From Bdellovibrionales bacterium (GTDB taxonomy: Bacteria > Bdellovibrionota > Bdellovibrionia > Bdellovibrionales > UBA1609), in NCBI GenBank assembly GCA_965261545.1, contig CBDHDF010000010.1, positions 672,001 to 736,000 on the forward strand: a stretch of DNA of 64,000 bases, given 5' to 3'. Shown piece after piece: positions 42,822 through 52,883 of this stretch. The notes beneath the pieces were generated by a model. It was not told the origin of the DNA and made no database searches. It was given only the letters and a program-made list of their open reading frames with translations. Every line of letters begins with the position of its first letter. Position 1 is the stretch's first letter. Both the position numbers and the translations under genes were made by a program.

Positions 42822-43730
42822 CTACATACAATAGACGTCATTGCATCTTTCCAATCGATCTTGTACTAATTTAATGAAATCGGGTTCAATATCTATACCT
42901 ACACTGTTCCTACCTGTACATCTAGCGGCCAAGCAAGTTGTCCCAGAGCCGACGAATGGATCTAAAACTGTTTGTTTCTCAGTAGAGAAAAGACGAATAA
43001 GGTGCTCACATAGTTGCACTGGCTTTGGTGTTAAGTGTTTATTGCCATCTTCTCGCCTTTGTTTCTCAACAGTCATCACTGTTTCAGGGACTCGTCCTGT
43101 AATTGTTTGGCGCACGTCGATAAGCCCCGTTCCATGCAATAGCCAATTATCTACAAATGTCCCTTCCTTTGGCTTTTGCGCACAAATAATTAACTCAAAT
43201 TGGGGACGTAATTGCGGAGTTCGACGTCCTCCAATACTTCGAATGACTTCTAATTTCTGTTTTTCTGTCATATCACCACGCTTACGAACAAAATGATCGA
43301 CTGTAAATGCCTTAAATTGTGCGCTCTTTGTGAATCGCCACGCAAAAGAATCTCGAATCTCAAATCCAGCATTTTCAGCAGCTATGGCCGCACGGTGATA
43401 AAGCCTCGGGGCAGAAAACATAAGCATAAATCCGCCGGGTTTTAAAATACGCAATAATTCTTTAGCAATAGGTTCAATGAAAGCTTGTAATCTTTTTCCT
43501 TGATTAGGATCGAATTTCATACCAATAGGCAAGCCGCCAATAACTTTGGCCGCACGATGATTCCGAGAATAATGAATTCTGTCTTTATTCCATTTATCAT
43601 CAAGCCCATTGAGGAAATATGGTGGATCGGTTAAGACCAAATGAACGCTAGAGTCACCCATATCTTTAAGAATATTGCGGCAATCGCCTTTATAAAGTTT
43701 CACTGTAGATGTATGGACAATTGCACTCAT
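42822..43730 (-). CDS. site-specific DNA methyltransferase (N6-adenine/N4-cytosine, beta-class motif order)
   Basis: TDPPY catalytic motif near the N-terminus, HLTPKP, VLDPFVGSGTT SAM-binding motif near the C-terminus. Confidence 0.92.
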   Translation of the reverse strand: MSAIVHTSTVKLYKGDCRNILKDMGDSSVHLVLTDPPYFLNGLDDKWNKDRIHYSRNHRAAKVIGGLPIGMKFDPNQGKRLQAFIEPIAKELLRILKPGGFMLMFSAPRLYHRAAIAAENAGFEIRDSFAWRFTKSAQFKAFTVDHFVRKRGDMTEKQKLEVIRSIGGRRTPQLRPQFELIICAQKPKEGTFVDNWLLHGTGLIDVRQTITGRVPETVMTVEKQRREDGNKHLTPKPVQLCEHLIRLFSTEKQTVLDPFVGSGTTCLAARCTGRNSVGIDIEPDFIKLVQDRLERCNDVYCM

Positions 43731-43896
43731 TGCCCGCACCAGCTGCATGCATTACCCACACTTTCCCTACTTCAATGCCTCATTGATGATTTTTCTTTCC
43801 CTTTTGGGGGAAAATTCTGGTCAAGTTTTGTTTCCTGGATTTTTCCATAACTTTCTCCTTTAAGTGCAATTTTTATGGCGGTATACTTAAAAAGGC

Positions 43897-43922
43897 ATGA
43901 ACTCTTCGTGCGAAGAGTTCAT
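43897..43922. terminator. perfect 12-bp inverted repeat (terminator or operator)
   Basis: ATGAACTCTTCG-TG-CGAAGAGTTCAT between the acidic-repeat gene and the methyltransferase. Confidence 0.5.
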
Positions 43923-44009
43923 AGCCCTCTGTACAATTTGCACGCAGCAAAACCACGCCGCCGAGCGCCGAGCCGCAAAACCACGCACGCAAAAAGACTC
44001 CTCTGTACC

Positions 44010-45041
44010 CTAATCGTCAGTGTCATCGCCTTCGTCGGTGTCATCGCCTTCGTCAGCGTCATCGCCTTCGTCAGTGTCATCGCCTTCGTCAGCGTCATCG
44101 CCTTCGTCAGTGTCATCGCCTTCGTCAGTGTCATCGCCTTCGTCAGTGTCATCGCCTTCGTCAGTGTCATCGCCTTCGTCGGTGTCATCGCCTTCGTCGG
44201 TGTCATCGCCTTCGTCAGTGTCATCGCCTTCGTCAGCGTCATCGCCTTCGTCAGTGTCATCGCCTTCGTCAGTGTCATCGCCTTCGTCAGTGTCATCGCC
44301 TTCGTCAGTGTCATCGCCTTCGTCGGTATCATCGCCTTCGTCGGTATCATCGCCTTCGTCGGTATCACATTCGACATCACACTCATCGCCTTCGTCGGTG
44401 TCATCGCCTTCGTCAGTGTCATCGCCTTCGTCAGCGTCATCGCCTTCGGTGTCATCGCCTTCGTCAGTGTCATCTCCTTCGTCAGTGTCATCGCCTTCGT
44501 CGGTATCGGAAGTAGGAACCCCATGAATAGTCATCTCGATATTACGCAAAACAACTCCCAAAGAGTGTTTACCAAAAGTTAAGGTGAAATTCTCAACACC
44601 TCTTGAACCATTTTTGTGGTGCGCACTAAACGTCGCATACTCTGGTTTCTGCTCGTGAATATTTTTGCGCATAAGAGTTGTGGAGTAACTGCCCAACACA
44701 TCTTCCAAATCTTTAAATTGGAAGTCAGAAGACTGTATGCGAGTTCCATGAATTTCAGTCCAGCCGAAACCCAAGCCTTTGCTCTCTATAGAAATAAATA
44801 CTGGCATGCTTTTCTTTTCATTATCTTGCAGGGATGTACAAGTGAGAGTAACTTCACCTTCCAGCATTCCGTAGCCGATGAAAAACCCTGATTCATATCC
44901 ATTGAGTGTGCCATCAATATGACATAATGTCATATCTTCGACATCTCCGGCATCTCCGGCAGAGTGGGATAACGAAAATCCACCAAGAAAGAAAACTACA
45001 ACTGTAATAAAACTATAAAATAACTTTTTCATAATCGACAC
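44010..45041 (-). CDS. secreted protein with C-terminal acidic DEGDDT repeat tail
   Basis: Signal peptide (MKKLFY...), beta-rich domain of about 145 aa, then about 27 hexapeptide repeats. Confidence 0.75.
   Translation of the reverse strand: MSIMKKLFYSFITVVVFFLGGFSLSHSAGDAGDVEDMTLCHIDGTLNGYESGFFIGYGMLEGEVTLTCTSLQDNEKKSMPVFISIESKGLGFGWTEIHGTRIQSSDFQFKDLEDVLGSYSTTLMRKNIHEQKPEYATFSAHHKNGSRGVENFTLTFGKHSLGVVLRNIEMTIHGVPTSDTDEGDDTDEGDDTDEGDDTEGDDADEGDDTDEGDDTDEGDECDVECDTDEGDDTDEGDDTDEGDDTDEGDDTDEGDDTDEGDDTDEGDDADEGDDTDEGDDTDEGDDTDEGDDTDEGDDTDEGDDTDEGDDTDEGDDADEGDDTDEGDDADEGDDTDEGDDTDD
44013..44507. repeat. 18-bp tandem repeat (about 27 units, consensus GTCATCGCCTTCGTCAGT)
   Basis: Directly visible; one 15-bp unit and one diverged unit (DEC-DVEC). 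Confidence 0.97.
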
Positions 45042-45527
45042 CTCTTCTTGTTCTTGTTATATTATTCTGTTGTATCAGAATATATTTTTTGTTTAGTATA
45101 AAATACTTTTATTTTATGATCATGTAAACCCCATCGTTTACATTCTCAGAAAATGTTGCTTTACCATAATAGTAGTATGAGATCCTGTGGGTAAAGTCTA
45201 GTTTTTCACTACGACACATGACACAGCAACCCCTTCCAAGATTCATTTTAAAACTGGCACTGCTTGCTATCTTATTTTAAGCTGTACACTTTGATGACAG
45301 TAACTCTATGCAATACAGATGCATCTTGATGTCGATAATTTGAGTCCAATTTGAGGTCCAATTGGGCTCCATCAATGCAAGCAGCTCCTTCCACAAACAT
45401 AGTAACTCATAAAGACTTATGAATAAGATTGAGTCATCCGATAAGATAAATGGCTAAAAATGTTAGATAACGAGACATGTATGACGCATCACGCACGCAC
45501 GTCTGTATGTATGATGGGAGGGGTTTT

Positions 45528-47194
45528 ATGCAAGATATAGCTCGGCTTGCAAGGTACAAGAGATTTCGCAAAAAAGAAGATGTCGATCTCAGCATTGTGA
45601 TCTCCACAAACAAGGGTGAACAGTTCACCCTCTCTGTGGAGGACTGCTCTCTCACGGGTATTTTTGCCAAATCTTCCACCGCAGGCATAAACATCGATGT
45701 GAATAGTATCATCCCCAACTCCAAGATCGTATTTCAAAATGAGGAGTACCCCATTGGCCGACTGGTGTGCAAAAGATGTGTGGAGCATGGGGGCACCACC
45801 TACCTGGCCCTTTCTGTGGTGGATATTCGACTTCCAATCTCAAGCTTTTTATCCAAAGCCGTCTCCCTGGACCTTGACTCTGGCTCCAATGAGCTCGAAG
45901 TGGAGCTAAGCGAAAAGGGCTTCACCATTGGTGATTTCTTAACCACAAAGTTTGAAAATCAAGATATTTTTGATCGCTGTTACAAGTTTGAGTTGTTTTA
46001 CAAAACCTATAAGGATAGTGACCGCTTTGCCTATTTCTTTCCCAGAAACTCCATGACGGGGCCACGAATCACTGTGAGAAAACGAGGCCCTCGCAAGGAC
46101 TACCTGATGTTTGGCTCCAATGATTATTTAAATCTCTCCTGCCACCCCGAGGTCATCGAAGCCGCCAACCGTGCCACACTCCAGTACGGCCTAGGATCAA
46201 CGGGAGCCTCCTCCCACCTCGGGCACCACCACCCTCCACCAGGAGTTGGCCGACAAGGTGGCCAGAATGTGTGGACGAGAGGAGGCCCTCATCTTTCCCT
46301 TCGGGTTACAGTGCCAGCCTGGGGATTATCTCAGCCCTGGCCGGGGCCGAGGACCTTATTTTGGCCGACGTGTTGAGCCATGCCTCCCTCCAAGACGGTA
46401 TGAAGCTTTCGGGGGCCTCCTGCCGTTTTTACTCCCACAACAACATGAAGCATTTAGAACGCATTCTCAAAAAGGAGAGAGACAAACACTCGGGCTGCCT
46501 CATTGTCACCGAAGGGATTTTCTCTATGGATGGCACCCTCGGTAAAATCCATGAAATTCTGCCCATTGCTCGCAAGTACAATGCCAGGGTCATGGCCGAC
46601 CAAGGGCACTGCTTTGGGCTCTTGGGGGAGAGGCTTACGGGCACAGCAGAACATTTTGGCATGGAAGACAAACTGGATATCACCATGGGGCTTTTTTCCA
46701 AGGCCGCAGGAGCCTTTGGGGGATTTGTCACCGGCCCCCCCGAGTTGATCCACTGGTACAAAGTTTATGCAAGATCCTATATTTTTGCCACCAGCATCCC
46801 CCCCGGCATTGCCGCCGGAACCCTCAAAGCCCTTGAAATCATGGAGTCGGGGGAGAGGCAAAAAATACTCTTTAAAAACATCGAAATGTTTGTCAAAGGC
46901 TTGGTGGACATGGGGCTTCCCATCGACCCCCAACATAGCACTCCCATTGTCCCCATAGAAGTGGGAGATGAGACAAAAATGGGGGCGATCTTTCAATCCC
47001 TCCTCGAAGGCGGGGTCTATGCCCTCCCTGTGATGTACCCCGTGGTGGCACGCAATCATTGCCGCTTTCGTTTTTCCATCACCTCTGCCCTAACCCCCAC
47101 GGATATCGAGTTGGCCTTGATGGTGCTTAAAAGGGCCTTTGAACAAAACAATTTCACCTTCAAAGAAACAAAGAGAGAGGGAGAAGATTTTTAG
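45528..47194 (+). pseudogene. PilZ-like domain fused to alpha-oxoamine synthase (SPT/KBL/BioF/CqsA family) PLP enzyme, split by two +1 frameshifts (real or sequencing error)
   Basis: Frame A: DCSLTG PilZ-like motif and FGSNDYLNL...YGLGSTG. Frame B: TSGTTTLHQELADKVARMCGREEALIFP. Frame C: SGYSASLG, HASLQDG, EGIFSMDG, DQGH, GLFSK (PLP Lys), RFRFSI. Removing two bases gives one ORF of about 554 aa. Confidence 0.8.
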
Positions 47195-47266
47195 ATGAAA
47201 AAAAGTAGAAAAAAGGACTCATGGAGTTTTTTCTATGGGCGTAAGTAAGTATGGGTGTAAGTAAGT

Positions 47267-49246
47267 ATGGGCATAAATGAATTATTGATTTCCTTGATGC
47301 TGACCTCTCAATCTTTGATGGGTGTGATCGAGATGCCTGAAAATGTCAGCCCTTGGAAAGTGGAAAAAAAATGGAGCCGAGACCAAGGCCAACTGGAACT
47401 TATCCTTTCCACCAGGTATGGAGACCTTTCTTGCCCCCAGGACTCCCTTCTCGTTTTCCCTCAAATTCTCTACGCAGAGCAAGAAGTTTACGGCAAGGGG
47501 ATCCACCGCTCCCTCAATGCTCCCCACGAACCCAAAAATATCTTTGGCCAAATGAGCATCAAGTGTTCCGACTTAAAATCCTTGGAGCCCAACGATACCC
47601 TCCAGTGGCGCGTGCAAGGTTACTCTCGCTATTTCTCTCACTTCAGTGAAAGCCCCAAGATCAAACCCATTGAAGCCCACCTCAAGGTCTCTGAGAACCT
47701 CTATATAGGTTCCACCCTGGGCCTTTTTCTCTTCTCCCTTCTCCTCTATATGGCCTTTGCCCACAAGGAGAACCTGGCCTTCACCCTCTCCCTCAGTTTA
47801 TCAGCCTTTTTTCTCGCCCTCTACTTTTTTTGGAATGTCAGCGGTGAATTTGGGCTCGTTCTCTCCATGTTAAGTGTCCATAAAATGGCCGACTTGTCCC
47901 TGGTCTTTGGCTTCCTCATGCTCATGATGGGTTTTTACTTTCGAGGCTTTCTCCACAAAAAATTCCTTATTTTATTTTTCGCCATGTGTGGGATTGCCAC
48001 CTTGACCATTGGCCTTGGGGGCAATGGGGACATCATCCAGGTGGGGACAAGCACGCCCTTTATAGCGGCGGCCCTTTGCCAGTTTTACATATGCCATAGC
48101 ACCCTGAGACTCTTTGTGAACAAAAGAGATCCCGTCCATCTCATGGAGTTCTTTTTTGCCCTGATTTTTTCCACCTTTGTTCTCCTTGAAATGTCCATTG
48201 TTATGGGAACTCTCCACATGCCCAGCTACTTTCCCTTGGGTTTGATTTTTGCCTTTCTGATCTTTACAGTTTCCATCAATCGACAGATTCGCAAAACCTA
48301 CAAAGAAAGGGACGAGCTTCTGGACGAAATGGGAGAGAAGATCAAAAGTCGCACCGCCGACCTCTCCCAAGCCCTCAAGGAAAAGGACATCGCCCAAGCG
48401 GAGCTTATTGAAAGTGCTCGATTGGCCTCCCTGGGGACATTGAGTGCCGGCATTGCCCATGAAATCAACAACAGCATTAACTATGTCAATGCCTGTGTGA
48501 TTGGTTTGGAAAAACAAATGAACTTGGCGGTGAGCAAGGACAGTCCTCAACTCCCCATCATCAAAAAACTTCTCAAAACCATCAAGCACGGGGCAGAGAT
48601 CACCATCAGTATTGTTTCCAGCCTTCGATCCTACACGGGCTTGGAACAATCTGAAATGCAAAGAACTTCCTTTGACGATGTGGTGAACTCTGTCACCACC
48701 ATCATTCGGTCCAAAATGGGCTCCATTGAATTTATCAAGGACTACGATCCCAAGGTGCAAATTTATGGCTCCGTCGTGGGACTTAGCCAAGTCATTATGA
48801 ACCTTGTCACCAACGCCCTAGATGCTTTGCCCCACCAAGAAGAAGGACAAATCAAGGAAGAGAGAATCAAGGAAGGAAGAATTAAGATATCCGCCCACAC
48901 AATCGAAAATAGAAAAGATAGCGAAAGTAACGAACATAGTGAAAATAGCGAGAGTAACAAAAATAATAAAGATCATTTTAAAATTGTGATCTCAGACAAT
49001 GGGTCGGGAATGGAGCCCCATCTTGTGAAACATATCTTTGACCCCTTCTTTACCACCAAAGAAGTAGGCAAGGGAACGGGTCTAGGGCTTTATATTGTAA
49101 AAAAGGAAATTGAAAGTCGACACAAAGGGACAATCACCGTGGAGAGCACCAAGGGCGAAGGAACAACCTTTGTCATTGAACTACCGCAACCCCAATCACA
49201 ACGAAAGCCCCAAGCCCACAAGCTTCTTTACAAGGAGACTGCCTAA
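47267..49246 (+). CDS. membrane sensor histidine kinase (extracytoplasmic domain + 7 TM)
   Basis: Seven hydrophobic helices, H-box AGIAHEINN, N-box NLVTNALDA, DNGSGM, FDPFFTTK, GTGLGL. Confidence 0.93.
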   Translation: MGINELLISLMLTSQSLMGVIEMPENVSPWKVEKKWSRDQGQLELILSTRYGDLSCPQDSLLVFPQILYAEQEVYGKGIHRSLNAPHEPKNIFGQMSIKCSDLKSLEPNDTLQWRVQGYSRYFSHFSESPKIKPIEAHLKVSENLYIGSTLGLFLFSLLLYMAFAHKENLAFTLSLSLSAFFLALYFFWNVSGEFGLVLSMLSVHKMADLSLVFGFLMLMMGFYFRGFLHKKFLILFFAMCGIATLTIGLGGNGDIIQVGTSTPFIAAALCQFYICHSTLRLFVNKRDPVHLMEFFFALIFSTFVLLEMSIVMGTLHMPSYFPLGLIFAFLIFTVSINRQIRKTYKERDELLDEMGEKIKSRTADLSQALKEKDIAQAELIESARLASLGTLSAGIAHEINNSINYVNACVIGLEKQMNLAVSKDSPQLPIIKKLLKTIKHGAEITISIVSSLRSYTGLEQSEMQRTSFDDVVNSVTTIIRSKMGSIEFIKDYDPKVQIYGSVVGLSQVIMNLVTNALDALPHQEEGQIKEERIKEGRIKISAHTIENRKDSESNEHSENSESNKNNKDHFKIVISDNGSGMEPHLVKHIFDPFFTTKEVGKGTGLGLYIVKKEIESRHKGTITVESTKGEGTTFVIELPQPQSQRKPQAHKLLYKETA

Positions 49247-50448
49247 TGGGAACTCGAATTTTATATCTTGATGATGAAGTCCATCAGCACATCTCTCTGG
49301 AGGTCCTCATTCCCGAAGAATGGGAAATTCACTGCTTTGCAGACCCCCTCAAGGCTTTGGACGCCCTCTCAGAGATTGATCCCTGGATTATTATAAGCGA
49401 TCAGAGAATGCCTCATATGCAGGGTTTTCGATTTTTGGAATTGGCAAAAACAATGACCCCTGACGCCATTCGAGTTATCACCACGGGCTACAGCGATGAA
49501 AAATCCATTGTGGAGTCCATTCGCAAGGCCCAGGTCTTTGATTATATTGTCAAGCCCTGGGATACAAACAAACTCTTAAAATCCCTGGAGAGAGCGGCTC
49601 ATTTTTACGAAAGTGAAAAAGAGAAAAAGGAGTTAAACCAAAGACTCCAGAGAAAAAACAAAGAACTCAAAGACCTCTGCGATCAATTGGGCTCTCTCGT
49701 TCGTAGCCATGAAAAAATAGAAGAAGAATTGAAAAGCTGGGTCCACCCCTTTGTCATGCAGGCGGCCGCTGTGAATATCCATTTTCCCATTCAAAAAGAT
49801 ATCGCAGCCCTTGTCATTGATATTATCGGCAGCAGTGAAATACACGAAAAAATCACTGACAATATGCCCCTACGTATTCGAGTGCTACAAACAGCTTGGG
49901 AAATTATTCTTCGCCACGGTGGTGAGGTGGAGTCCCAAGAAGGAGATAAGATCTATGCCAATTTTGGTTTATTTGATTTGGTAAAGCACCCCGCCAACGC
50001 CGCCCTGGCCGCAGCCAAAGAGCTAAGATCAAGTCTCCAAAGCCTCAATGATCACTATGGAACCAGTGTCGAGTGTGGTGTGGCTGTTCATGTGGCCAAT
50101 AAATGCTCTGTCTTTCTAAGAAAGGCTGTTTTAAATACAGAAAGTGGTGTTAAAGTGCGAAAGAAATTTGATACAAGCTCCTTAGATATTGATCTCACCC
50201 ACAGGCTGGAGGACATCACCCACCAACTCCCCGGAAGCAATATCATGCTCACAAGAGATTTATTTGACTATCTAGAACGCCCTCCCGATAAAAACCAAAT
50301 CACTTCCCTGGGACACTATGTTTTAAAAGGCCAGTTGCAACCGGCAGAGTTACTTCTCATTAAATCCAACCGTGTCACCCAAGAAGAAATTGAAGAACTC
50401 AAAAGCAATTACTTATCCCAATTCTCTCTAGAGAAGAAGGTTGCCTAA
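49246..50448 (+). CDS. response regulator receiver fused to class III nucleotidyl cyclase-like domain
   Basis: REC (LDDE, SDQRMP, TGY, VKPW), coiled coil, cyclase motifs VIDIIGSS, EGDKI, RLE, LKG. TAATG overlap with the kinase. Confidence 0.82.
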   Translation: MGTRILYLDDEVHQHISLEVLIPEEWEIHCFADPLKALDALSEIDPWIIISDQRMPHMQGFRFLELAKTMTPDAIRVITTGYSDEKSIVESIRKAQVFDYIVKPWDTNKLLKSLERAAHFYESEKEKKELNQRLQRKNKELKDLCDQLGSLVRSHEKIEEELKSWVHPFVMQAAAVNIHFPIQKDIAALVIDIIGSSEIHEKITDNMPLRIRVLQTAWEIILRHGGEVESQEGDKIYANFGLFDLVKHPANAALAAAKELRSSLQSLNDHYGTSVECGVAVHVANKCSVFLRKAVLNTESGVKVRKKFDTSSLDIDLTHRLEDITHQLPGSNIMLTRDLFDYLERPPDKNQITSLGHYVLKGQLQPAELLLIKSNRVTQEEIEELKSNYLSQFSLEKKVA

Positions 50449-50531
50449 GCAGCAAGGCCGCATGCCGCATAAACAGAAGAGAAAGAGCATTGAAGACTTC
50501 TGATAACATGTGAGACCCCTGTTCTCTTTCT

Positions 50532-51365
50532 CTAAAAGCTTTTAATCAATGGCGATGGTGTCAACCTTCGCCATTGAAAAGAGGGGGCCTGAAAGTAGTG
50601 GTTCAAAAAGGGAACCAAACAGGACCCTATCATAAGGGCATAAATCAAACCATTCTCCATAAAGAAATAATAATGGAAGGTAAGGGCTGCGATGGCCACA
50701 AAAGATGAGAATACGACTTGACCCATAAAGTGATGGGGAGCACTCCTAGGGTCAGAAATCATAAAAAAAGCAAAAATTAAGAAAGAACCTTTTAAGGCTG
50801 TGTGATAGAAAACAGCCATTTCGTAACCCAGATAAATATTTCGTATAAGAACTCCTCCCAAGTAAAAGATGAGAAACAACCAAGCCGTATGACTCTGGCG
50901 CATTTGACCAGCGATCAAGCAGCCCACAGCGATGACCCATGCTGATATGGAAATCCCTGAGCCCCATTGTCCCGGTGAAATCCAAGCCTTATTCCACAGT
51001 AAAATCGCAAAGATGCCAAGAGCTGAAGGGTTGAAGATATGTTGGCCCTTGTATTGTAGAAGAAATTTTGAATGGATGGCGATAAAGGCCGCAAGGGGAT
51101 GCATCCATAAGTTATGGCTTCTTAAAAGAAGAACAATACTGAGGGAGCTAATAAGGGCACTGAGAAAACTGTGAGATTTGAGATTTAATTTTTTTATCCA
51201 AAAAAATTGTGTGAGTAGACCCGAAGCCAAGGTCAGAGGAACCTGCATCCATCGAAAAGATAGATCAAACATCCATAGGCCATAAATAAATAGACTCGCT
51301 AGGAATATGATCTGTATATACCTTACGTCTTTGATCAACACCCGCATGTCCTTGGTCAACAACAA
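50532..51365 (-). CDS. RnfD/NqrB-like integral membrane protein (stand-alone)
   Basis: Polytopic; SALIS, HIFNPSALG, ISPGQWG, FAFFMISDP. Confidence 0.7.
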   Translation of the reverse strand: MLLTKDMRVLIKDVRYIQIIFLASLFIYGLWMFDLSFRWMQVPLTLASGLLTQFFWIKKLNLKSHSFLSALISSLSIVLLLRSHNLWMHPLAAFIAIHSKFLLQYKGQHIFNPSALGIFAILLWNKAWISPGQWGSGISISAWVIAVGCLIAGQMRQSHTAWLFLIFYLGGVLIRNIYLGYEMAVFYHTALKGSFLIFAFFMISDPRSAPHHFMGQVVFSSFVAIAALTFHYYFFMENGLIYALMIGSCLVPFLNHYFQAPSFQWRRLTPSPLIKSF

Positions 51366-51461
51366 ATATCCTTACCTTAGCCACAACCGCATGCCCTTAA
51401 TCAATCCAACGGCATGTCTTTGGTCAACAACAGTTTATTGTTTATGCTTATTACTTATTGC

Positions 51462-52883
51462 TTATTTCCACAGATTTTTCCACCATGGGTCTTTGGATGT
51501 GGGAGTGTGTGATCCAGGAGATGAAGAAGAATTCATATTTTTTCTAATCTCTTGGATATTCCACCCTGTCAGTCGAGCCAATACTTGAGCTTCTTTTTCT
51601 TGACGCTGGGGGAGATTTGCAAAATACTTCTTGGCCGCCTGACATTGTGAGGGTGATCCCTTCCAAGGATGTCGTAAAATATAACGACCCTGGAAGTTTC
51701 TCGTGTCACGTGTTTCGTGAAACATCAAGTCTGCGGGAAAGGTCTTGTCCGTGTAACGAAGGTGAAGACGAGTGACCTTAACAGGTTGTGCCCCTCCTTT
51801 TGAGCGAGAAAAAGTCCTCCCTTGGGGCGAGAAAGAAGAACGGTTGGAGGGACGATTTTTTCCTCCTTGATTTTGATTCAACCAGAAAACACCCAAGCCT
51901 TTTAACTCTTGTTGAGTCAAAGGATCTGCGGCACAGGGATCACACCAACCCATATCCCAATAGTACTCCATAAAAACAGTTTTCATCTGTTCTCTTGCCA
52001 CCTGTGTTTTAAAAATATCTTTGTAGAAGTCAGAAAATTTGTCTTTAACATAGATAGGTATCTCCACATCTGTGGGTATCTTGGTCGTAACATAGTTTGT
52101 GGTTTCCACACGGCCATTTTTGGTCAACACATAGACAAATAAATCCTGGGGGCCTTTGGAGTTTAACATTCCCAGTCGAATGGGGAGCATAAATTTTTCT
52201 GAGGAAAAAGCAAATTGAAGGGGCCTTAGATATGTGAGGCCCGCTCTCGCTTGTTGCTCCAAATTGACTTTGGCCACAAAGAATTTCATTTTTTGTTTGA
52301 TGTAGGGTTGAAGGGCCCTATGAGCCCCCTTGGGGATGTTATACTTGTTCAGTTTAAGCCATGTCTCCAAACCATGGGATTCTTTGGCTGAGAGAACAAC
52401 AATATCGTACTCCCCCACAGTGAATTTCTCTTCCACGGTGACTCCAAGAGATTTCTTTTTGGGGGGAGCCCCTCTTAAGCTTAAGGACTTGTTGAGGTTT
52501 CTGTTGCTCTCCATGGCGTCGTATACTATATTTGGCCGACAGGGGTCCTCATCAAAGTATTCAACAAGCCTTGGTGCCGTGAAGGAGTCAATTCTTTCAA
52601 AAAGTTTCTTATCCCCCACATGCACCTGTTCTTTCTTGAGAATCGAAGGAAGGGGAACCACAAGAGCAAAATTTTTCAAAGACCCCTCATAGTCATTCAT
52701 CATACTGATAACTGTTTTATTCTCATGCCTCACCAGAACAACTTGAGAGGCTTTGTTAAAAAGCTTTGCATTGCCCTTGGCCACATAAAAGCCGCAAAAC
52801 CCATGAGCTTGATAAAAGGGTAAAAATAAACATAGAGTGATAACATACAAAAAAACATACTGAGCTTTCATTTTTTTCTCCAT
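51462..52883 (-). CDS. DUF2330-family secreted protein
   Basis: Signal peptide then FCGFYVA, FALVVPLP, TAPRLVEYFDEDPC, VGEYDIVVLSA, MLPIRLG, TRLHLRY, NFQGRY. Confidence 0.82.
   Translation of the reverse strand: MEKKMKAQYVFLYVITLCLFLPFYQAHGFCGFYVAKGNAKLFNKASQVVLVRHENKTVISMMNDYEGSLKNFALVVPLPSILKKEQVHVGDKKLFERIDSFTAPRLVEYFDEDPCRPNIVYDAMESNRNLNKSLSLRGAPPKKKSLGVTVEEKFTVGEYDIVVLSAKESHGLETWLKLNKYNIPKGAHRALQPYIKQKMKFFVAKVNLEQQARAGLTYLRPLQFAFSSEKFMLPIRLGMLNSKGPQDLFVYVLTKNGRVETTNYVTTKIPTDVEIPIYVKDKFSDFYKDIFKTQVAREQMKTVFMEYYWDMGWCDPCAADPLTQQELKGLGVFWLNQNQGGKNRPSNRSSFSPQGRTFSRSKGGAQPVKVTRLHLRYTDKTFPADLMFHETRDTRNFQGRYILRHPWKGSPSQCQAAKKYFANLPQRQEKEAQVLARLTGWNIQEIRKNMNSSSSPGSHTPTSKDPWWKNLWK

Follow-up and report, generated by a model that had tools for sequence, protein, structure and literature searches.

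A 64,000-nucleotide stretch of a Bdellovibrionales genome (the window; contig CBDHDF010000010.1, positions 672,001 to 736,000) carries a real and conserved three-gene cassette, apparently an undescribed form of oxoamine-synthase signalling. The genes encode a PilZ-like/alpha-oxoamine synthase (AOS) fusion, a sensor histidine kinase and a receiver-cyclase response regulator, in this order and in one orientation (Table 1). The kinase stop overlaps the regulator start in TAATG, as the initial annotation had described for three co-oriented genes, and 72 bp separate the synthase from the kinase. The source genome is 4.3 Mb in 11 contigs and 97% complete. The publications searched, a set mostly outside subscription journals and supplements, describe neither this module nor an autoinducer system in Bdellovibrionota.

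We propose that the cassette encodes a self-signalling circuit, a reading drawn from the sequences to which we give a probability of about 55%. Judging from the chemistry of its family, the PLP enzyme would condense an acyl-thioester with an amino-acid substrate into a lipid amino-ketone, which would then be exported. The sensing half of the kinase may detect this product, as suggested by the co-variation described below, and the kinase would pass phosphate from His398 to Asp52 of the receiver-cyclase. The regulator would be activated by dimerisation through its coiled coil, and is predicted to make a cyclic nucleotide of some kind. Different strains might use type-specific signals, or dialects. 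Counting against the circuit, the cassette holds no tailoring or export gene, its cyclase lacks the Lys/Glu and Asn residues discussed below, and genome G010 (97% complete) has a synthase (L025:7882-9546) without any sensor match.

Table 1. Features of the cassette in the window.
Feature	Positions	Strand	Basis or remarks
PilZ-like/alpha-oxoamine synthase fusion, ~555 aa, two +1 breaks	45528..47194	+	intact homologues 548-598 aa
PilZ-like beta domain, RxxR and D/N-x-S-x-x-G, no canonical RxxxR	45528..45863	+	model, weak profile matches, motifs
PLP-dependent alpha-oxoamine synthase domain	46098..47194	+	profile, fold, catalytic residues
First +1 break in synthase	46206..46207	+	frame analysis, run contigs
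Second +1 break in synthase	46294..46294	+	frame analysis, run contigs
Sensor histidine kinase, 659 aa: extracytoplasmic domain, 7TM, HisKA-type core (His398), HATPase	47267..49246	+	
Sensing half: extracytoplasmic domain and 7TM	47267..48307	+	co-varies with synthase
Response regulator, 400 aa: REC (Asp52, Lys103), coiled-coil helix 107-165, class III cyclase-fold domain	49246..50448	+	
Atypical class III nucleotide cyclase domain	49780..50370	+	Asp192, Asp234, Arg320 invariant; Ser230 at Lys site; Asp316 at Asn site

The trio is a real cassette that travels together. All three genes are present in 30 of the 33 genome loci found with the cyclase; the regulator is inverted in one of these 30, and the synthase is truncated at a contig end in three. 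The remaining loci are one cut inside the kinase, one sensor-cyclase fusion and one without the synthase. In one sample of 401 genomes of the phylum, the fused synthase occurs in 20, with the sensor adjacent in every case (20/20) and the cyclase about 4 kb on from the synthase in 18; a sensor match is found in 27 of the same genomes and a cyclase match in 21 (below E 1e-60). The initial annotation had made its reading depend on recurrence of this synteny elsewhere, and the trio does recur, with flanks that vary widely between loci. The closest relatives of the cassette are from Bdellovibrionota, a phylum of predatory bacteria, and cultured carriers include Oligoflexus tunisiensis, Pseudobdellovibrio sp. 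HCB154 and Bdellovibrio sp. qaytius. Databases contain at least 120 fusion proteins of full length.

Several loci depart from the common arrangement. Genomes with the sensor and no synthase occur, and in G222 the sensor and regulator stand without a synthase (L062:5772-9007). The regulator lies beside unrelated kinases in G261 and G272 (L063, L064). In G060 the synthase-sensor pair is present twice (L020:7549-11766 and L021:1167-5397), its kinase core is divergent, and it is accompanied by a convergent 230-aa regulator that has no cyclase. A second, diverged sensor homologue (L030:135-1832) is found immediately upstream of one cassette. A pdxJ-like gene (PLP cofactor synthesis), confirmed as such by Pfam for L139 only, flanks the cassette or its replacement in L030/L144, L048, L049/L143, L067, L142, L139 and L140.

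The kinase, initially described as a 7TM histidine kinase, is borne out as 7TM-DISM-type with a histidine kinase (HK) core. The Pfam family 7TMR-DISM_7TM matches 5 of 30 homologues (best E 2e-6) and not the window protein itself, and Atlas makes the assignment with a score of 0.93 and 203 shared features. Six segments of the window kinase lie above the hydropathy threshold; the seventh is polar. The 7TM region has the invariant residues Tyr186, His205, Asp209 and Gln258. The extracytoplasmic domain, which matches no Pfam family, contains two invariant Cys. The H box is intact in 31/31 kinases. The kinase carries no REC of its own, unlike a hybrid kinase.

The strongest evidence that couples the enzyme to the sensor is their shared history. 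Pairwise distances were compared across 29 cassettes, with RpoB as the species marker; the set leaves out L041 (no RpoB), the near duplicates L035, L043, L049 and L051, the truncated loci, and the two G060 copies, which have no cyclase. The AOS domain co-varies with the extracytoplasmic domain (rho 0.82) and the 7TM region (0.72), whereas its values with the HK core and with RpoB are 0.32 and 0.12. The 7TM region hardly follows its own HK core (0.13), and the HK core follows REC (0.65) and RpoB (0.51). Between the sensing half and the PilZ-like domain the values are 0.39-0.58, the upper one for the 7TM region, as against 0.72-0.82 with the AOS domain. The picture is unchanged with tree-based distances or with L145 removed. 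The permutation p-values overstate the significance, since kin are not independent.

The same break is seen within one genus. L067, L142 and L141 have RpoB proteins 91-96% identical, and across the HK core, REC and cyclase L141 is 59-73% identical to the other two; in AOS the value is 54%, and in the sensing half 20-23%. In AU tests, for which the clades were picked after the trees had been seen, a clade of the three is rejected on the sensor tree (p-AU 1e-8) and on the AOS tree (1e-90). On the output tree the three form a clade (SH-aLRT 100), and the synthase and sensor groupings are rejected there. One genus thus has two synthase-sensor types on one shared output module. The exchange boundary lies inside the kinase gene, between the sensing and catalytic halves, and because the break falls within a gene, the pattern is not a simple decay with distance. 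The trees and distances show that the synthase and the sensing half are exchanged as one block, with the output half more vertically inherited. This shared history favours a signal-receptor pair over unrelated neighbours, and such joint exchange is the expectation if strains use different chemical dialects. The contiguous-block exchange is evidence of coupling and is silent on the direction of the signal. A strict column test for type-specific AOS residues gave just 6 conservative differences, among which no type-distinguishing pocket can be named.

The AOS domain was assigned by profile and fold to the alpha-oxoamine synthase superfamily of fold type I PLP enzymes. The PLP His, Asp-x-x-His, Schiff-base Lys and carboxylate Arg are invariant (120/120 homologues among the matches listed), which confirms the family named in the initial annotation. 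Four intact synthase homologues were scored against the curated NCBIfam models, and no family cut-off was passed. They score 157-209 bits with the CqsA model NF005526 (cut-off 428; 4/4 below), the second-lowest score among the named AOS equivalogs, and the synthase is 24% identical to a CqsA. The scores are 329-384 for BioF (cut-off 426), 308-339 for KBL (460) and 251-273 for ALAS (339). For the three serine palmitoyltransferase (SPT) models they are 285-331, 268-319 and 205-252 bits, with cut-offs of 640, 500 and 670.

The initial annotation had also called for a tree of the enzyme family. In a 70-row tree, which contains no LqsA row, the fused synthases form one clade of 39 rows (support 93/83) apart from CqsA, BioF, ALAS and the KBL-like and SPT-like clades. 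The CqsA placement is coarse, as it depends on a single row on a very long branch, and the KBL-like label comes from a neighbouring dehydrogenase-like ORF, the annotated KBL reference L111 being outside the tree. The L145 synthase has a long branch and falls outside the 39-row clade. L028, L151 and L152 encode unfused oxoamine synthases of 434-454 aa, which form their own clade and lie in a different multi-gene cluster.

A regulated SPT-like enzyme could instead make a membrane lipid, with the kinase monitoring the cell's own envelope and no signal passing between cells. We regard this as improbable. Among the fold matches of the synthase a bacterial SPT indeed ranks first (Z 39.4), level with KBL (38.8), the SPT CFB model aligns with the synthase from the N-terminus of the model, and sensing of the own membrane equally predicts co-variation. 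However, the scores of 285-331 lie below the cut-off of 640, and the fusion occurs in only 20/401 genomes. The order also contains a distinct SPT-like clade of 13 rows, one member of which adjoins a GNAT gene; G068 encodes both an SPT-like enzyme and a fused synthase, and the GNAT gene of the relative, used as query, has no match in the source genome. The sub-cut-off scores, the separate clade and the synthase-sensor co-variation also weaken the earlier alternative of an SPT with unrelated neighbours.

The N-terminal domain of the synthase bears the least secure label of the cassette, PilZ-like. It is all-beta in the structural model, and a PilZ beta-barrel is a candidate fold; the fold search of the full-length protein is dominated by the AOS domain. 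Pfam PilZ matches 3 of 27 members (best E 0.016), the best PDB matches are of YcgR/MrkH type (E 1.1-1.3), and the Atlas score of 0.82 for the label is a lead only. Among the matches listed, all 120 full-length homologues have the domain. The (D/N)xSxxG motif is kept in them (D/N in 111/120, S in 118/120, G in 120/120), RxxR is found in 116/120, where the first position holds a residue other than Arg, and the canonical RxxxR is found in 0/120. Among 627 candidates no longer fusion of the N-terminus was found, which is weak evidence.

In the proposed circuit, the loop might be closed by the cyclic nucleotide acting on cNMP-EAL proteins, which would change c-di-GMP and so reach the PilZ-like domain. 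The source genome has four GGDEF matches, and three of its ORFs match cNMP-binding as well as EAL domains, as Bd1971 does (PMC6717892), so that such a route exists. This closure is nevertheless the least certain step of the circuit, because the canonical RxxxR is missing, and the feedback suggested in the initial annotation is weakened on the same ground.

The flow could also run in reverse. The kinase would then sense an outside cue such as prey, the cyclase product would gate the synthase through the PilZ-like domain, directly or via c-di-GMP, and the lipid would be the output. Retention of the PilZ-like domain in every homologue listed and the 7TM/PilZ-like correlation of 0.58 are in line with this, as is the occurrence of a different enzyme, a PilZ-like methyltransferase, beside sensor homologues in four loci. 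Yet the sensing half is closer to AOS than to the PilZ-like domain, and the exchange boundary lies within the kinase, while a prey sensor needs no change along with the enzyme. We consider the reversed flow doubtful.

At the methyltransferase loci (L137:1844-6890, L139:1462-6981, L140:4601-10121 and L054:421-5527), the sensor homologues adjoin a membrane class III cyclase and the methyltransferase, which has RxxR and NxSxxG in its N-terminus. L139 and L140 add a fatty-acid desaturase-like gene, and the flanks in L137 are those found around the trio in L043/L044. These loci are possibly an alternative signal module.

The regulator has the REC-class III cyclase anatomy given in the initial annotation, as confirmed by fold and residues. 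Pfam does not call a class III cyclase in the window regulator; the fold search matches CyaC and CyaB with Z 19.9 and rmsd 2.8-3.0 over about 180 residues. The metal Asp pair and the catalytic Arg are invariant (32/32). By definition, the first base site of an adenylyl cyclase holds Lys, for ATP, and that of a guanylyl cyclase Glu, for GTP, and Asn acts with Arg (PMC4215837). Here the base-selecting Lys/Glu and the transition-state Asn are missing, with Ser at the Lys site in 31/32 and Asp at the Asn site in 32/32, and the domain falls outside this definition. Its family is discrete and, in a set of 1.84 billion representatives, comprises 49 clusters at E<=1e-30; 31 of them have REC, 17 are the cyclase alone (<330 aa) and one is a sensor fusion. 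It is plausible that this output makes a cyclic nucleotide of some kind, as first suggested, though the non-standard specificity residues weaken this step.

Nine natural proteins of 563-591 aa (P0125, P0272-P0279) fuse the sensing half directly to the atypical cyclase without a kinase core or receiver. These fusions indicate that the cyclase domain is the output of the sensor. Fusion loci were found at L186, L187 and L053, two of the three cut by contig ends, and no synthase was found within the 1.2 kb upstream in L186.

The same circuit could operate with a cyclase-fold domain that serves as a nucleotide-binding or protein-interaction output and has no cyclase activity, like LqsR. The fixed Ser and Asp residues agree with this, and LqsR lacked diguanylate cyclase activity when assayed in vitro (PMC10653808). 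On the other hand, the two metal Asp and the catalytic Arg are never lost, and Ma1120 is a class III enzyme active without the Asn (PMC4215837). An inactive output is in our estimate unlikely. A far smaller chance is assigned to a module for phage defence or stress response whose cyclase would be Pycsar-like. The patchy distribution, varied sites and non-purine-type residues would fit such a module, and one of five regulators tested has a weak PADLOC PycC match (best E 1.4e-4); the other four have none, no cNMP-binding effector is present in the recurring cassette unit, and the output half tracks the species grouping in the tested genus.

The preferred signalling circuit resembles several known systems. 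In Cqs and Lqs, the autoinducers come from AOS enzymes encoded next to sensor kinases (PMC8023197). Lqs of Legionella (LqsA, LqsS, LqsR) and Cqs of Vibrio (CqsA, CqsS), both alpha-hydroxyketone systems, likewise cluster an alpha-oxoamine synthase with a membrane histidine kinase. Lqs also shares a regulator in the cluster that does not bind DNA, and synthase-less listeners (PMC8023197). In contrast to CqsA, the present synthase forms a separate clade, has the PilZ-like domain and shows the low identity and score given above. The sensor differs from CqsS and LqsS in its 7TM-DISM type, its extracytoplasmic domain and the absence of a fused REC. Only the kinase core aligns with the kinase beside cqsA, and a comparison of the sensing profile with the first 200 residues encoded by that gene gives a probability of 0.3. 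The output has a class III cyclase fold, whereas LqsR is GGDEF-like by description, the LqsR/PhcX type being defined by REC together with a GGDEF-like domain. When the output domain was searched alone, the best matches were class III cyclases, REC-GGDEF proteins appeared too, and LqsR was absent among the matches listed, which is compatible with kinship. By these comparisons the cassette appears to function like Lqs and Cqs and to lie outside their membership, as synthase and sensor both fail the tests. The Cqs/Lqs-like logic with new parts proposed initially is in part supported; none of the parts is a CqsA or CqsS orthologue, and apparently, as far as the fold comparison reaches, none is an LqsR orthologue.

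In ComP and AgrC only the sensing part is known to vary, and the boundary lies within the receptor. The signal gene and sensing part of Bacillus ComQXPA and staphylococcal agr co-vary over a conserved output, and the cassette shows the pattern of such pherotype loci. The comQXP genes are polymorphic (PMC4408185). There is no homology; those systems use peptide signals and DNA-binding regulators, whereas in the cassette the signal is likely a lipid and the output has a cyclase fold. RetS and LadS are 7TMR-DISM sensor kinases. Such kinases share with the cassette sensor an extracytoplasmic domain and 7TM before the kinase; the cassette differs in having an extracytoplasmic domain without a Pfam family and a linked dedicated synthase. 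CyaC, CyaB, Cya2 and bPAC share the fold, two metal Asp and catalytic Arg with the cassette cyclase, which has Ser for Lys/Glu and Asp for Asn.

If the circuit is true, these predators signal density or kinship in several strain types, signalling has drawn on alpha-oxoamine synthases twice, the second time with another receptor, a candidate ligand class exists for a 7TM-DISM receptor, and there is a cyclase family whose base-site residues are fixed and non-standard. Only a low probability is attached to the broadest version, in which lipid quorum or kin signalling would have evolved independently in Bdellovibrionota, with exchangeable dialects, an output other than cAMP or cGMP, a synthase gated by a nucleotide via the variant PilZ, and the PilZ-like methyltransferase as the alternative in the synthase slot.

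The synthase reading is split over three frames by two +1 breaks, and its best start, 45528, matches the homologue starts. Contigs were assembled from four sequencing runs of a single sample; in those from the two runs covering the breaks (depth 2.6 and 4.5), each break has one base fewer. These contigs derive from a strain slightly distinct from that of the window (of 22 substitutions tested, 15 are synonymous), and encode Asn where the window synthase has Ser; Asn is found in 120/120 homologues among the matches listed. Among 35 genes tested in the source genome, one further is split (L185:1231-1336, contig C7), and its extra bases, likewise missing from the contigs of the same runs, are assembly insertion errors. 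The two synthase frameshifts are most likely assembly errors as well, since the run contigs restore the conserved Asn and the control gene behaves alike. A true pseudogene is disfavoured by the run contigs, the restored Asn and the control gene; a strain-specific null synthase is possible, because the run contigs represent a near strain and not that of the window.

No Rfam riboswitch match at E<=1 was found in 20 upstream stretches or in window 43500-51500, and promoter and terminator scans gave matches at chance level only. The cyclase domain had zero matches in phage records. As stated initially, no bio or sphingolipid genes lie beside the cassette; the BioF gene of the source genome is elsewhere, directly after bioB. 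Divergent from the cassette is a gene at 44010-45041 (minus strand), the product of which starts like a signal peptide, contains DEGDDT-type hexapeptide repeats in a long acidic stretch and has no real Pfam match. The segment 42822-43748 (minus strand) encodes an N6/N4 DNA methylase, and 50532-52883 (minus strand), convergent on the cassette, encodes an NQR2/RnfD-like membrane protein and a DUF2330 protein.
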